A stretch of DNA of 64,000 bases, from the NCBI GenBank assembly GCA_964513075.1, contig CAZELR010000007.1, forward strand, positions 22,208 through 86,207, given 5' to 3'. This DNA comes from an uncultured Anaerolineales bacterium (GTDB lineage: Bacteria > Chloroflexota > Anaerolineae > CG2-30-64-16). Each line of letters starts with the position of its first letter. Position 1 is the stretch's first letter. Below the pieces are notes generated by a model. It had not been told where the DNA came from. It made no database searches and saw only the letters and a program-made list of their open reading frames with translations. Shown here piece after piece: positions 58,633 through 63,708 of the stretch. The position numbers and the translations under genes are program-made.

Positions 58633-58655
58633 TTTACTCACTCCATATCCCATCA

Positions 58656-58925
58656 TCACGTTGCACGCGTTCGAATAGACTCTCGACTAGCGCGGCCTGC
58701 GTCGAGCCTCCTTGGCAATGTCATTCTAAAATAGGTCTGCAACACAAACGCCATGTTGATGTCGCTTGTGCGCAGCCGGGGATCATCGAGTGACCAGGGA
58801 TTCACGCGCCAAACATCGTCCCCGTCAAGCCAGGCGGAGTTGTCCAGGCGCTTGAAGAGTATCTCAGCGCAGGTGCTCTTGCCGGTCCAGGCTTCGCCTC
58901 CTATCAGGATCAGCTTGGGTTTCAT
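58656..58925 (-). pseudogene. Short P-loop NTPase/kinase-like ORF, possibly truncated or frameshifted
   Basis: MKPKLILIGGEAWTGKST Walker A, but only ~90 aa with an atypical C-terminus; normal family members are ~170-190 aa. Confidence 0.3.
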
Positions 58926-58990
58926 GCCGTTATCATCACATTTCAATCCCTGGCGACGCCAGCCGGCCGGCTTCACCCTTCGGGCTGAGC

Positions 58991-59287
58991 CTAATGCCGC
59001 CGTGACGACGCCCGGCCGCCTCCGCCCCAGATCGCCGTGATTCCCAACAGAAAGCCGGCGACATACCAATTCCCGTTGTTGTGCACCTCCCACACGTGCA
59101 CCTTGTCCGAGAAGAGCGAAATGACGAACGTCACCGGCGCAATGATCCCGTGCCAGAGGCCCTGCCAGAAGCCCGCGACCTTGCCCTCTTCGTTCGGCGT
59201 GTTGACCTGCGGGTTTGGACCGGCCACGCAGCCCGCTAACACGACGAGCGCCAGCACCAACAGCGTCACCCTGAGCATGGTCTTCAT
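58991..59287 (-). CDS. Small lipoprotein/membrane protein, hypothetical
   Basis: 98 aa; signal peptide plus lipobox LAGC, then a hydrophobic helix. Confidence 0.5.
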   Translation of the reverse strand: MKTMLRVTLLVLALVVLAGCVAGPNPQVNTPNEEGKVAGFWQGLWHGIIAPVTFVISLFSDKVHVWEVHNNGNWYVAGFLLGITAIWGGGGRASSRRH

Positions 59288-59799
59288 TGGATAATCTCCT
59301 GCGACCTAAGTATCCTGATCATCGTCCACGAGGCAGCGACTGCCGCGTGCCGGACGAAGCCGAAACGCTCGTACAACCGCAGCGCCGGGTTGTCGCCCTC
59401 GACGCTGAGACTCAAGCGGCCGATGCCAAGGTTGGTCGCCTGATCGATCAGCGCCGCCAGAAGCGCGGTCCCGACGCCGCGGCCGCGCCAGCGCGGGTCC
59501 ACCCCGATGCCCAGCTCCGGGCAGTCTGCGTCGACGTAGCCGTAGGAGTGCTGGGTGTCGCTCCAGTATCGGCGCCACGCCGCACCGACAGGGCCCTGGG
59601 CCGTCTCAGCCACGACGGCAGCGTCCCCGGCCCGGCCCCATCCTTCCAGCAGATACGCGTGCCTCGTCTTTTGGATCACGTCTTCGGGATCGGATGCCGG
59701 CTCTGGCGAGCGCCAATCGATTGCCCAGGCCAGCGCCGAGCGCAGTGCGCCAAGGTCGTCCGCGGTCCCAAGCCGAACGCGGAAGTCGGGAGCTGACAT
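59284..59799 (-). CDS. GNAT-family N-acetyltransferase
   Basis: 171 aa; motif A RGRGVGTALL...; 4-nt overlap with the downstream gene. Confidence 0.8.
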   Translation of the reverse strand: MSAPDFRVRLGTADDLGALRSALAWAIDWRSPEPASDPEDVIQKTRHAYLLEGWGRAGDAAVVAETAQGPVGAAWRRYWSDTQHSYGYVDADCPELGIGVDPRWRGRGVGTALLAALIDQATNLGIGRLSLSVEGDNPALRLYERFGFVRHAAVAASWTMIRILRSQEIIQ

Positions 59800-59820
59800 T
59801 TGGGTATCTTCCTCCCCTGT

Positions 59821-60426
59821 TCAAGACACCCATACCATCACAATTGCCAAGAATCCAAGGATGGCTGTTGCTGCTGGAAAGGTGGTAGACGTCAAGCGCT
59901 TAGCCAATGTGAGAGTGTCCGTGGGGTAGTGGTCGGTCCACCAATGTTCAGGGAGAATAGCAGTTTCTTCTGCCGAATCAAAGAAACCCTTATCGTAGTA
60001 GTGGAGCAATCGGTCGATTCTCTGAATTACGGCGCCATTCTCCCTTTGCCACCTGCGATTTCGATTTTGCCATCGTATCGAGAACCAGACCAAGACTAAT
60101 ACTGTCATTGACGCGATAGTCTTCCCCCATACGCCATACGCCAGCCAAACGGCGCCTTCAGAGGGTTTGACGATAAGGAGAGCCCCAATTAGCACTAATA
60201 GGATATTGCTTGACCAACTGAAAACGTTTTGCTCGCGCTCGTGCCGACTTCTTACTTCGGCACGCTGTATGAGTTCCATGTGCTTGAGTAGATCAATCTT
60301 GTCTCCTATGCTAAGGCTTTCGGATTCATTCATTCTGTTGCCCCCATTTCGCACATATTGTTCGGTGGACATGACTCTTGAGTGCTTGCCCATAATTCGA
60401 CAACCGTCCGGACGATTAGGGTTCAC
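59821..60426 (-). CDS. Hypothetical 3-TM membrane protein (low-GC islet, gene 2)
   Basis: ORF in a ~49% GC segment; start uncertain (MSTEQYV or MNESESL); TM helices at LLVLIGALLIV, MTVLVLVWF, AILGFLAIVMVWV. Confidence 0.45.
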   Translation of the reverse strand: MNPNRPDGCRIMGKHSRVMSTEQYVRNGGNRMNESESLSIGDKIDLLKHMELIQRAEVRSRHEREQNVFSWSSNILLVLIGALLIVKPSEGAVWLAYGVWGKTIASMTVLVLVWFSIRWQNRNRRWQRENGAVIQRIDRLLHYYDKGFFDSAEETAILPEHWWTDHYPTDTLTLAKRLTSTTFPAATAILGFLAIVMVWVS

Positions 60427-60569
60427 TTGCGGCTGCGTCAGCGAGCTTGCCGCGGCTCACAGTGCGATCGGGGCGACTGCCAGGAGGATGGCGAGGTTAG
60501 GCCCCCGCTCCTAACCACACCCAACTCATGCCGCCGCGATGTGCGGCATGATGGCTGAGCAGAAACGCA

Positions 60570-61016
60570 TCAAGTTAGGGCTTCGGCTAACTCGAAGACA
60601 GTGTCGTAGAATTTCAGCAGAGTTGTGAAAGAAGGCTTATCGTACAAGAGTAGCGTTCCGGGAAAGCCAGATACGCGACCGTGCTCAAGCTCTCGTTGCA
60701 TCTGTGCGATTCTTTGCTTTAGCATGGGGATTGACAGTTCAGCCATCTTGTCCAAAGACTCAGCCCACGTGGCAAGGGGAACCGCTCCCTGATTGAGTAC
60801 CAAGTCTCTCACATTTCGGTTGCCTTTGATCAAATCGCGAATGCCGTCGGTTATTTGACGCGTTATCTCGATTGCCTCCAATCGCAAGAGATGGTCACGC
60901 TCGGTGTCTGATTTACAGTCCGTCAACGCATCCATCAGCGCTTCACGGTAGGCGGCAACAGCCACATCTGTAGTCTGTCTCGCTTTGTAGAACTTCTCGT
61001 GGAATACTGGAGTCAT
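60570..61016 (-). CDS. Hypothetical all-helical cytoplasmic protein (low-GC islet, gene 1)
   Basis: 148-aa ORF in the low-GC segment, downstream of the consensus promoter at 61190-61218 via a ~167-nt leader containing a 5-codon uORF (MGIRT) whose TGA overlaps the ATG. Confidence 0.45.
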   Translation of the reverse strand: MTPVFHEKFYKARQTTDVAVAAYREALMDALTDCKSDTERDHLLRLEAIEITRQITDGIRDLIKGNRNVRDLVLNQGAVPLATWAESLDKMAELSIPMLKQRIAQMQRELEHGRVSGFPGTLLLYDKPSFTTLLKFYDTVFELAEALT

Positions 61017-61189
61017 GTCCTAATGCCCATGATTTTGTGCCCCTCCAAACGCGGTCTTGGCCTAACGAATTAAGGATTTCACGCGGCGCACCGTGGGTCC
61101 TGCGTCGTGCTGCCCAGGGGCGGACCGCCCATAACACATCACAGCCAGACATGCGGTCGAAAGCCGCAAGCTTGTTTGCCACGGTTGCC

Positions 61190-61218
61190 ATTGTAAGCCA
61201 GCGTCCCGAGGCTGTCAA
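61190..61218 (-). promoter_or_regulatory. Consensus promoter TTGACA-N17-TACAAT (- strand), near-identical copy of the flotillin promoter
   Basis: TTGACA is the reverse complement of 61213-61218, 17-nt spacer, TACAAT is the reverse complement of 61190-61195; ~30/33 nt identical to 63654-63686 (CTTGACAGCCTYGGGACG..GGCTTACAATG). Confidence 0.55.
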
Positions 61219-61329
61219 GAGATTTCCCGCGGCAAGCAAATTGACGCCTTTCCGAAGCACCAAGACTATCACAATAATCAAAACTATCCGGACGCAATAA
61301 CAGGCAGCATCATCAGGAAGCAAGATGGG

Positions 61330-61425
61330 GATGACGCTTAAGCATAAGTAACCTTATCTTGCCTATCTTGCCCATCTTGCTATGCAGGTCGTTAGGGGCA
61401 AGATAGGCAAGATGGGCAAGGTGAG
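61330..61425. repeat. Imperfect inverted repeat built from ATCTTGCC/GGCAAGAT heptamer-like units (3 direct units facing 4 inverted units)
   Basis: CTTATCTTGCCTATCTTGCCCATCTTGC ... GGCAAGATAGGCAAGATGGGCAAGGTGAGGATGAGCAAGATGGGCAAC; lies just 3' of the flotillin stop (61570) and 5' of the islet promoter. Confidence 0.6.
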
Positions 61426-61569
61426 GATGAGCAAGATGGGCAACCATCCTATGGCATGGAGTCGGAGGCTTGTATTGTCGTTTGGGTTGCGGTGCACCGA
61501 CAAGAGGCCCTGGAAATCAAAGATGAAATCCAAGGCCTCTCTGTTTCTGCTTTCGTTCCGGGAGTCGAG

Positions 61570-63573
61570 CTAAGCCGGCTTCCCCTCCGACGACGTTGGC
61601 CCGGCCCCCTGCCGGCTCTCCTTGAGGCCCTCGAGGATCTGAGCCCGCAACTGGTCCGCCTGCGGGTTCGGTTCTCGCTGCCCAGCGGCGCTCACTTCCA
61701 GGCCCAGCTTATCGGATAGCAGGAGCGTCAACAACCCTTCCATCACGCCGCTGCTGGTCGCAGTGCCCCCCGCGCCGCCGATCACCACGCGCGGCACCAC
61801 GTCCACTCTCGACTGTTGCACTGCTTCGGCAAAGCGGTTCATCACCTGCTGCGTGACCTGGAACTGCGGGCCGCCGTAGGCCGCCACCTGCTCCTCGATG
61901 GCGATGGCCTGGCCGATGCCGACGCGGGCGGTCTTTTCGGCCTCTGCCTCGGCCAGGGCGCGTATTTGGGCCGCCTGCTGCAGCGCCCGGGCATATTCGG
62001 CCTTGCCCTGGTTGCTCTGTACCGTGATGCTCAGCTCAGATTCGGTGATGTTGCGCTGCTGGTCTGCGCGCGCCTGTGCCTCGCGCAGATCTCGTTCCTT
62101 CGCTGCCGCTGATTGCTGCCGGGCATAGGTCTCGATCTGCTCGACAGCGATCTGCCGGGAGCGCAGTTGGTTCAGGATAAGCTCGAACTGTTTGTCCTCG
62201 GCCATCGCGACCGGCGTGCCGATCAACACCTCTTCCAGTTCCAGGTTATAGTGTGCGAACCTTTCCTTCATCTCCTGGCTCGAAATCTGCTGGATGTTGC
62301 CGCGCTCCTGGATGAGCTGGATCAGCGTGCGCGTCTGGCCGATGTTCTTGAAGTAGGCCGACACCATGGGGTCGAGGGTCTGCTCGACCAGCCGTTTCAC
62401 GTCGCCGAAGCGCTGGACCACCAGGGGCGCCTTGCGGTAGTCGATGTGCATGACCACCGACAGCGGCAGCGACGGCTCGAAGGCGTCCTTGGTGATCAAT
62501 GAGATCTCCGCCAGGTTTTCGTCGAAGTGGTGCGAGCCGACCTGGCCGCGGATCCACTTCAGGATGACGTTGGTGGTGGGCACCGGCACGACCTTGCCGG
62601 CGTAGGTGTTGAACGCGTACTTGCCCGGCATGAGCGGCGCATCCCACACGCCGCGATGGCCTCTCTCCACCAACTCGCCATGCCGATAGTCATCGCCCGA
62701 CAGGTCACGGCCGGCCTCGCCGGTGTAGAAGACCACCACGCCGACGGTCCCGATTTCGATGATGGTCTTGGGGATCATCTCCACCGTGGCAAACAGCCGG
62801 TTGAGATAGTAGGTGCCTTCGACCAGGACCTGCAACTGGCGCCCTCGCAGGCCGCCGGCCTTCAGGAACCGGTCGGGCGCCTGGAAGTTATTGTGATACG
62901 TCTCCACCTCGGTTGGGTCACCGCCCACGATGGGCGCGATGATCTCGCCCGGCGACAACGAGGGTCCGTCGTGAACCGTCACAATGCCGGTCTTGTCGTC
63001 CTGATCCTTGAGCACCACCGGCCGAAAGCCGTCACGCTCGCCGATCACCTTGGCCATATTCTGGATGACCCCTTCTTCGGCGCGGTTGAGCGGCAGGTAG
63101 TAGACTTTTTCCTCGGTGATCACGATGAACTGCGCCAGGTTGATGGCGTAGGTGCCCTCGCGCAGGATTTGACGCTGTGGTCCGCGCTGGCCGCCGTCTT
63201 GCAGGAACGCAGCGACATCCTGAAAGTCATTGGCGGTAACGTTCGAAGCCAGCACCTGCATCGGCTCCAGTGGATGTCCATCGCGCGCAAAGACGTAGCC
63301 GATCTTGCCCTGGGTGATGGTCACCAGGGGCGAGCGGTGGACGACATACTGGATCGGCATCAGGTAGTGCAGGCCCCCGCGCAGCAGCTTAGGCTGGAAG
63401 CCGGCCTCTCCCTTGAGCGCGATAAAGCCGGTTTTGATGGATTTGGCGCCGAAACGCTTTTCGACGATGCCAACGCGGTTGTTGGGGATGAAGCGAATGC
63501 CCGACAAGGCGAGCAACACCAGCGCAGCTAACACCGCCAACGCGAGGATGAGAAGAATTGTTCCGATATCCAT
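61570..63573 (-). CDS. Flotillin-family SPFH-domain protein (YqiK/FloT-like)
   Basis: Start at ATG 63573 (MDIGTILLILALAVLAA; AAGGAGG SD with a 7-nt spacer); SPFH core plus long EA-rich coiled-coil region; the ORF-track start at 63606 adds 11 aa. Confidence 0.85.
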   Translation of the reverse strand: MDIGTILLILALAVLAALVLLALSGIRFIPNNRVGIVEKRFGAKSIKTGFIALKGEAGFQPKLLRGGLHYLMPIQYVVHRSPLVTITQGKIGYVFARDGHPLEPMQVLASNVTANDFQDVAAFLQDGGQRGPQRQILREGTYAINLAQFIVITEEKVYYLPLNRAEEGVIQNMAKVIGERDGFRPVVLKDQDDKTGIVTVHDGPSLSPGEIIAPIVGGDPTEVETYHNNFQAPDRFLKAGGLRGRQLQVLVEGTYYLNRLFATVEMIPKTIIEIGTVGVVVFYTGEAGRDLSGDDYRHGELVERGHRGVWDAPLMPGKYAFNTYAGKVVPVPTTNVILKWIRGQVGSHHFDENLAEISLITKDAFEPSLPLSVVMHIDYRKAPLVVQRFGDVKRLVEQTLDPMVSAYFKNIGQTRTLIQLIQERGNIQQISSQEMKERFAHYNLELEEVLIGTPVAMAEDKQFELILNQLRSRQIAVEQIETYARQQSAAAKERDLREAQARADQQRNITESELSITVQSNQGKAEYARALQQAAQIRALAEAEAEKTARVGIGQAIAIEEQVAAYGGPQFQVTQQVMNRFAEAVQQSRVDVVPRVVIGGAGGTATSSGVMEGLLTLLLSDKLGLEVSAAGQREPNPQADQLRAQILEGLKESRQGAGPTSSEGKPA

Positions 63574-63653
63574 GATCCTACCTCCTTGGGACACATGATC
63601 CGTCATAGTTGGATATGTGATTGAAAGTTGCGATCTTTTTTGCCACCACTGAC

Positions 63654-63682
63654 ATTGTAAGCCGCCGTCCCAAGGCTGTCAA
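63654..63682 (-). promoter_or_regulatory. Consensus promoter TTGACA-N17-TACAAT for the flotillin gene
   Basis: TTGACA is the reverse complement of 63677-63682, 17-nt spacer, TACAAT is the reverse complement of 63654-63659; ~70-nt leader to the SD. Confidence 0.55.
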
Positions 63683-63708
63683 GCGGTTTTGCTGACACCC
63701 GGCCCCCG

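Follow-up and report, generated by a model that had tools for sequence, protein, structure and literature searches.

A small strain-variable slot between flotillin-like and GNAT genes in an Anaerolineae genome, and the two uncharacterised genes that it holds

The islet and its genes

We focus here on a short islet, poor in guanine plus cytosine (GC), in a 64-kb stretch (the window) of a contig from an Anaerolineae (Chloroflexota) metagenome-assembled genome (MAG). The islet carries two genes, A and B, which lie between a gene for a flotillin-like protein and one for a GNAT acetyltransferase (Table 1). Positions follow the numbering of the window throughout, and all genes between ~56.8 and 64 kb are on the minus strand. 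We consider it likely that the islet fills a small slot whose cargo varies between strains, a hotspot of the defence type, and that its two orphan genes are unrelated and arrived separately. In terms of composition, the segment 59812-61410 has the lowest GC content of all 1.6-kb segments in the 64 kb (0.520; mean 0.627, standard deviation 0.026). Segments of 300 nt have a GC content of 0.48-0.55 between ~59800 and ~61600 and of 0.60-0.72 in the flanks, and GC at third codon positions (GC3) is 0.56 in gene A and 0.54 in gene B, versus 0.80-0.84 in the GNAT, flotillin and PPK2 genes. The anomaly is clearly more than chance, and the drop that an earlier, sequence-only reading of this DNA had pointed out is, by the GC and GC3 comparison, both real and extreme. 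That reading had placed the islet at 59800-61330; the low-GC segment stands, but the foreign end does not lie at 61330, since comparison with sister contigs puts it at 61410, ~80 nt further. The two hypothetical genes that it had described are also real and lie on the minus strand, with A a soluble helical protein of 148 aa, as proposed, and B a protein with three hydrophobic segments but of 170 aa rather than ~200 aa.

Table 1. Features of the islet and its surroundings, in window numbering
Feature	Position	Strand	Basis and remarks
GNAT acetyltransferase gene	59284..59799	-	Pfam Acetyltransf_1 E = 2e-15; conserved flank
Strain-specific cargo segment	59812..61410	.	1599 bp, GC 0.52; between the flotillin-like gene and the GNAT gene; blastn breakpoints against L019 and L020
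Gene B, 170 aa, three hydrophobic segments	59821..60333	-	Homolog lengths and conserved start
A-B spacer, 236 nt	60334..60569	-	60334-60409 part of the B unit; 60410-60569 unique, higher GC
Gene A, 148 aa, soluble, all-helical	60570..61016	-	Open reading frame; start fixed by the conserved N-terminus M-x-[VI]-F
Shine-Dalgarno sequence (SD) GGAGGGG (61046..61040) and upstream open reading frame (uORF) MGIRT (61030..61013)	61013..61046	-	Read directly; TGA overlaps the ATG of A (ATGA)
Promoter and approximately the first 35 nt of the inferred leader	61148..61225	-	77-81% identical to the flotillin promoter and 5' untranslated region, window 63612-63689
Sigma-70-type promoter TTGACA-17-TACAAT (predicted)	61218..61190	-	11/12 positions
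9-nt repeat array GCAAGATRG, inverted arrangement	61320..61444	.	Straddles the 61411 breakpoint; perfect 18-bp stem, 61356-61373 with 61396-61413
Conserved hairpin just past the flotillin stop	61503..61540	-	Conserved in L019 and L020
Flotillin-like SPFH/Band_7 gene	61570..63573	-	Pfam Band_7 E = 2.5e-13; conserved flank

An alternative cargo at the same slot

The slot is defined by two sister contigs, L019 and L020, whose flanks are 88-95% identical to the window at the nucleotide level on both sides (blastn). Homology stops at 61411 and resumes at 59811. At exactly the slot of the window, both contigs carry a cargo of 1.9 kb that encodes a restriction endonuclease (REase) of the XhoI family and an N6/N4 methyltransferase (MTase); in L020 these score 3.1e-92 for REase_II and 3.6e-66 for MTase_II in PADLOC and match XhoI and N6_N4_Mtase in Pfam. 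This cargo is also GC-poor (0.56 versus 0.63-0.65 in the flanks), and the neighbourhood around it, consisting of LysE, flotillin, the slot, GNAT, a 98-aa protein, nitroreductase, PPK2 and MazG, is common to the window and both sister contigs. Horizontal acquisition had been suggested from composition in the sequence-only reading, which had also named in advance what would speak against it, namely orthologs of the same low GC at this locus across the whole clade. These were not found; in the two sister contigs a different, restriction-modification (R-M) cargo occupies the same slot between conserved flanks, and the acquisition claim thus survives. The GNAT neighbour is absent at all 80 of the 80 flotillin loci of other species, and the slot can therefore be compared only within the close lineage.

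An integrative mobile element, an integron cassette and a prophage remnant were considered as the source of the cargo and find no support, as there is no integrase or transposase open reading frame (ORF) within the window cargo, no tRNA gene that could serve as a target within the 64-kb window, and no match of A or B in IMG/VR viral contigs, so that a viral origin is not supported. Defence hotspots that lie between core genes and have no detectable mobile elements have precedents (PMC10121019, PMC10250203). Similarly to the core-genome hotspots cDHS1/2 of P. aeruginosa (PMC10250203) and hotspot #37 of E. coli (PMC10121019), the locus described here has conserved flanks with alternative, unrelated cargo in close genomes, one of its alleles is a bona fide R-M system, its cargo is GC-poor, and no mobility genes lie inside. 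It differs from them, on the other hand, in that its slot takes up no more than 1.6-1.9 kb and two genes, in that only two alleles and no empty site have been seen, in that the host is an uncultured member of the Anaerolineae, and in that the window cargo is not a recognised defence system. The locus is thus of an ordinary kind, a defence-type hotspot, with a cargo that is uncharacterised.

Gene A: a rare helical family among defence genes

The product of gene A has no hydrophobic segments (maximum KD19 0.68), and its AlphaFold2 model is a seven-helix bundle with a predicted local distance difference test score (pLDDT) of 83 and a predicted template modelling score of 0.81. Family A comprises 62 clusters among 5.8 billion proteins, and an exhaustive profile search returned 27 matches among 1.84 billion representatives, with no fusions and no remote relatives. 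Its members always stand alone, are 140-170 aa long without a Pfam domain, and have conserved blocks in common (EITRHITDGIRDL, GAxPLATW, LExG and GFPGT..KPxF). The residues Y23, E47, T52, G58, V73, P80, L81, W84 and L110 are invariant in an alignment of 54 family members, and the window copy retains all of them. Neither A nor B, searched as single sequences and through each member of their families, gives anything above noise in Pfam, PADLOC, PHROGs or NCBIfam. For A there is no family or fold match in the PDB, and the best PDB sequence-profile match for the two proteins (E = 0.0017) is a spurious ABC-transporter transmembrane segment for B. The earlier statement that the membrane protein has no recognisable family is hence borne out, and homology to known toxins, antitoxins or abortive-infection (Abi) proteins is not found in these four collections.

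Family A resides in defence islands. In nine of the nine other locus types examined, A homologs lie beside recognised or candidate defence genes, and in eight of these they are directly adjacent to them. First of all, A is found within or next to restriction operons: between hsdM and hsdS in the order hsdR-hsdM-A-hsdS, with a 3-nt gap and a 4-nt overlap (L106), after a Type III REase (L013), before a methyl-directed Type II REase (L110), and in the order McrB-McrC-A-SIR2/STAND (L012). Second, A follows a minimal nucleotidyltransferase (MNT; PDC-S09) in L014-17. Third, A precedes an NB-ARC/TPR STAND gene, with AbiEii, NUDIX and TIR nearby, in L001-6 and L105. Finally, A lies near PDC-S68 in L107/108 and in L112-119, the latter also having an HSDR_N gene and a giant DEAD/MZB helicase; in L107/108 the defence-type genes are a few genes away from A and not adjacent. 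PDC-S68, a candidate system in PADLOC, is a 1250-aa RecD-like helicase protein, seen near A homologs in these two locus types (L107:3617-6571, L112:6571-10323); it is adjacent and convergent to A in L112-119 and four genes away in L107/108.

The block formed by A and the STAND gene is kept between L001 and L105 (91% and 96% identity), with the upstream gene swapped. The swapped genes (L001:2272-3228, L105:1102-2079) have a domain of ~79 aa in common, located at the C-terminus of a 318-aa protein and at the N-terminus of a 325-aa protein, and a motif similar to that of the domain occurs near the N-terminus of the neighbouring STAND NTPase (L001:3838-6075). The domain looks like one of the effector-associated adaptor type in STAND conflict systems.

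Restriction-linked genes are known from Campylobacter as 'rlo' genes. The nearest precedent for A homologs embedded in R-M operons (L106, L012, L013 and L110) is PrrC, which is embedded in the Type IC R-M operon EcoprrI (PMC3874165). Family A resembles PrrC and the rlo genes in its link to restriction operons: its members lie within them or immediately behind them, 3-25 nt from the neighbouring gene (hsdM-A-hsdS, McrC-A, Res-A, A-mREase). Unlike PrrC and RloC, the 148-aa A has no P-loop or ABC-type ATPase and no nuclease domain (no P-loop, no Pfam match), nor any sequence or fold similarity to them; the window copy lies outside an R-M operon, and a guard activity of A is a proposal. It is reasonable to regard family A as a candidate defence-associated gene. 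From this guilt by association, we lean towards an involvement of A in defence or in its regulation.

Gene B: a solitary membrane protein

The ORF listed for gene B spans 59821..60426 and encodes 201 aa from a GTG. However, the 19 clusters of family B are all 161-184 aa long, except for one 134-aa fragment, and in the 85%-identical copy of B in L009 only the ATG at 60333 and the upstream GGGCAACAGA are conserved; we therefore take B to start at this ATG. Its hydrophobic segments are located at ~36-65, 68-86 and 147-170, and in order from the N-terminus the protein has a conserved helix (DLLKHME.IQR), the first two of these segments, a basic loop that is also conserved (WQNRNR...IQRID.LLHYY.KGYFD) and, at the C-terminus, the third segment. 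The ratio of nonsynonymous to synonymous substitution rates (dN/dS) against the L009 copy is 0.10 and, by this measure, B is under purifying selection.

B homologs always lie 11-17 GC points below their host contig and always move about as single genes, each preceded by 165-550 nt that code for nothing. They are found near a CHAT protease and an integrase (L007/8), near toxin-antitoxin-like DUF4160/DUF2442/BrnT genes (L009, L101-103), or near small unknown genes. Homologs beside DUF4160, DUF2442 or BrnT clusters occur in two unrelated lineages (L009:6635-7705 and L101:8551-9062, with a host GC of 0.63 and 0.47), and the recurrence of this neighbourhood may stem from an integration niche that they have in common, not from a common function. 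A Pfam scan of 19 B members gave no SLATT match and a single S_4TM match at E = 0.091, and PADLOC gave no match. B may be an independent, membrane-acting accessory protein; a role in defence is one that we would sooner doubt than accept.

A duplicated promoter and an overlapping uORF

The sequence-only reading had described a 'perfect TTGACA-17-TACAAT' promoter with a leader of ~167 nt upstream of A. Both are present, although 'perfect' does not apply, since the -10 hexamer matches at five of its six positions. This is the only match in 3 kb, and shuffles give 0.9; taken alone, the match is no better than chance. The flotillin gene is, however, preceded by the same, intact TTGACA-17-TACAAT, and the four aligned copies (islet, flotillin and two flotillin orthologs) do not differ in either hexamer, which makes the predicted islet promoter credible. 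The match between the islet and the flotillin promoter regions has an E of 2e-10 to 4e-14 by blastn; the promoter-leader pattern occurs at two places only in the window and is absent upstream of flotillin in 80 other Anaerolineae loci. As judged from this comparison, the islet promoter and the beginning of the leader derive from a duplication of the flotillin promoter and have since diverged.

The uORF reads ATG GGC ATT AGG ACA TGA, with the GGAGGGG SD 9 nt upstream and the ATG of A at 61016, and these elements, including the ATGA overlap, are all present as previously described. Given the ATGA, 37% of shuffled leaders hold an ATG-started uORF that ends on the overlapping TGA, and 6.6% hold such a uORF together with an SD-like 4-mer; the MGIRT uORF is thus suggestive, not compelling, and constitutes weak evidence. 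The only SD-like sequence that gene A has for itself, AGGA, is 1 nt from the ATG and not correctly spaced, whereas eight A homologs have their own SD 6-10 nt upstream, within different upstream regions and with no ATGA uORF. This difference renders translational coupling of A to the uORF, via the ATGA overlap, plausible. Termination-reinitiation at overlapping stop and start codons (ATGA) takes place between many operon genes. The islet resembles such cases in that the uORF stop overlaps the ATG of A and in that there is a strong SD for the uORF and none for A, and it differs from them in that the upstream cistron has only five codons, is unconserved and is statistically weak.

Attenuation had been raised as another use of this layout, and it finds no support. 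The leader (61017-61183) folds no better than shuffles (z = +0.70), its only terminator-like match is on the opposite (+) strand (61152-61168), and Rfam gives no match to it, with only spurious microRNA matches to the palindrome 61351-61427; terminator-like matches across the islet region as a whole are not above shuffle expectation. A riboswitch or a leader-peptide attenuator was rejected on these fold, terminator and Rfam results and, in contrast to leader-peptide attenuators, the islet leader has no alternative hairpins. The idea that the promoter and leader sequence common to the islet and the flotillin gene encodes a conserved small peptide was likewise rejected, as the stop of its frame is not conserved in L020 and the substitutions lack codon periodicity. 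A putative conserved RNA structure in the shared 5' untranslated region comes to -7.7 kcal/mol, from four sequences only.

Weighing the alternatives

Several points weigh against the reading of the islet as separately acquired cargo of a defence-type slot. First of all, the slot is defined by two sister contigs only, and an empty allele has not been seen. Second, window A has no neighbouring restriction or STAND partner, so that a partner-dependent role would be idle here. Third, the islet promoter is a predicted one, and the only other copy of the leader and uORF is the identical one in L011, which makes their conservation uninformative. Finally, the structural model of B is poor (pLDDT 64), too poor for a structure search, and the link of B to defence rests on four context types only.

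The alternative that survives best is that the cargo is neutral passenger DNA, left over from a decayed mobile element or from illegitimate recombination, and that A and B have no defence role here. The islet does have the look of something assembled from pieces (two unrelated gene units, a unique spacer and a copy of a host promoter), its proteins have no known domains, A is without its usual partners, and there is a repeat array at the junction, as at the ends of elements. Both ORFs are nevertheless intact, B has a low dN/dS against its 85%-identical copy, A keeps all the family-invariant residues, a strong (predicted) promoter and SDs are in place, neither viral contigs nor PHROGs give a match, and A is near defence genes in every other locus type examined. 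We thus regard neutral passenger DNA as an unlikely account of the cargo.

It is considerably less likely still that A and B form one Abi or toxin-antitoxin-like module, with a soluble partner and a membrane effector acquired together, as the sequence-only reading had speculated. The two genes are adjacent and co-oriented, both have low GC, one promoter lies upstream of them, and the slot otherwise holds a defence system. The same pair is also present in a second sample (L011), but this copy is 100% identical to the window and is therefore of the same lineage rather than an independent occurrence. When all family members were compared with 125 loci by tblastn, A and B were found together only in the window and L011, among 22 A-containing and 10 B-containing sequences, and thus in none of the 20 other A-containing and 8 other B-containing ones. 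Furthermore, the B unit (59817..60409, which comprises the gene and the 76 nt in front of it) has a nucleotide identity of 84.8% to L009/L010; these lack A, and the gene that precedes the unit there is a DUF2442 gene, part of a BrnT/DUF2442 cluster. The spacer between the genes shows no overlap or tight coupling; its central 160 nt (60410-60569) match nothing, are unrelated to either unit and contain two GC-rich hairpins without a U-tract, and no promoter or terminator match was found in the spacer. With no co-occurrence elsewhere, a B unit that exists elsewhere without A, and a unique spacer, the module is not supported. A and B are independent, and the islet, as its parts compare with other loci, is a patchwork of a duplicated promoter, a unique spacer and two gene units. 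The link to defence that had been drawn from the supposed module holds in spirit, through the R-M alternative allele and the defence neighbours of A homologs; the two-gene toxin-type module itself does not.

Least probable of all, to the point that we give it hardly any weight, is that A is a divergent RNase toxin of the MNT-HEPN type whose expression is kept low by the uORF and leader: the idea was prompted by L014-17, where the A homolog lies 10 nt downstream of a 103-aa MNT (Pfam NTP_transf_2; PADLOC PDC-S09), the usual HEPN position, and A is of HEPN size (~150 aa) and all-helical, but A is rejected as a HEPN protein because the Rx4-6H motif is not found in the 54-sequence alignment (the nearest is R108-x3-H112, neither residue being invariant), structure comparison gives no match to the four-helix HEPN fold, one of the 54 members has a faint HEPN match in Pfam (E = 0.069), and an MNT neighbour is seen in one of ten context types, most A loci having none. 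HEPN genes are said to occur often within R-M loci, reportedly a point made by Anantharaman and colleagues in Biol Direct in 2013, and we counted this in favour of the toxin.

The junction and the flanking genes

At the junction near the 3' end of the flotillin gene, six of the eight window matches of GCAAGATRG lie in 61320..61444, where 0.78 would be expected. Only the outer part of this array (61411-61444) is common to L019 and L020, and the 18-bp palindromic stem is half conserved flank and half cargo. The 9-nt junction repeats were not found in any other locus compared, and their matches in viral contigs are mostly coding tripeptide repeats. One viral contig, IMGVR_UViG_3300028392_000294 (L122:7640-7800), has a non-coding inverted repeat with the same 9-mer, consisting of three copies of GCAAGATAG and then three of CTATCTTGT. 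It is intergenic and upstream of an 884-aa primase/helicase-like gene, its units face the loop the other way round from those of the window, and it looks like an iteron or an operator.

The flotillin 3' region as a whole (61300-61570, minus strand) folds far better than shuffles (z = -6.6). It holds the conserved hairpin at 61503-61540, which is likely the 3'-end or terminator structure of the flotillin gene, and a second, window-specific 18-bp stem across the cargo junction. These hairpins may insulate the cargo from flotillin read-through. On the other side of the slot, only 21 nt separate the stop of B from the GNAT ATG, and the breakpoint falls 12 nt upstream of this ATG; with so short a distance from B, the GNAT gene and the cargo probably share a transcript. 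Other contigs, L019 and L020 among them, encode further members of the 90%-identity cluster to which the GNAT protein belongs.

The flotillin-like protein is 98-99% identical in L019 and L020 at the amino acid level and is conserved across Anaerolineae, with its best relatives in Chloroflexota and Anaerolineae MAGs. A contig of a Chloroflexota MAG from Lac Pavin (L021:9920-11911) has only the flotillin coding sequence in common with the window (61597-63588; 93.8% nucleotide and 97% amino acid identity) and completely different flanks, whereas flotillins of other species are only 69-79% identical at the amino acid level. This suggests that the flotillin gene itself was recently transferred or recombined.

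A second variable slot lies ~1 kb further (window 58647-58981; L019:8919-9786; L020:10573-11867), between the genes for the 98-aa membrane protein or lipoprotein and the nitroreductase. It holds a PARG-like gene in L019, a 178-aa gene and an Rce1-like CPBP protease in L020, and an apparently truncated P-loop ORF (58656..59093) in the window. L020 also has an IS110 transposase between the GNAT gene and the 98-aa gene, and plasticity marks this neighbourhood throughout. The flotillin gene of L019 is broken up into three frames (L019:3909-5938), and a single 425-aa product is annotated there for the XhoI and MTase genes together (L019:6219-7496); these are probably frameshift errors of long reads and not real pseudogenes.

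Concluding remarks

The comparisons above can be combined into a tentative model of how the islet works, in which we infer the transcription start, the uORF coupling, the read-through and all biochemical roles. Transcription would start near 61183, from the diverged duplicate of the flotillin promoter. Ribosomes would load at the SD of the uORF and, at its stop, begin anew on the ATG of A that overlaps it, giving a low level of A. The transcript would continue through the spacer, whose hairpins lack a U-tract, into B and then into the GNAT gene. A could serve nucleic-acid-directed or STAND immunity as an accessory or guard-type component that is also able to stand alone, and B could be an independent, membrane-acting accessory gene of the exclusion or effector type. 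In its most specific form, the proposal is that family A is a new, structurally unassigned type of restriction-linked guard or modulator, a small helical bundle that plugs into a range of unrelated systems that target nucleic acids or are of the STAND type (Type I, Type III, methyl-directed Type II, McrBC and Avs-like) and also acts alone, for example by Abi when a partner is inhibited, with B as a separate, new single-gene membrane factor for defence or exclusion. We put this forward as a speculative proposal, with the odds against it as a whole.

The locus does not overturn current ideas. It does show hotspot-style exchange of immunity cargo in the Anaerolineae, an uncultured lineage that has seen little work on defence. 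The duplication of a host promoter that drives foreign cargo is also a small but clear example of how acquired genes are wired into a host operon. Furthermore, two uncharacterised gene families are flagged here, of which family A is the more useful lead: it is rare, has no detectable relatives in sequence or fold, and is found in or beside several restriction and STAND systems, which is the type of signature that has led to new defence genes.

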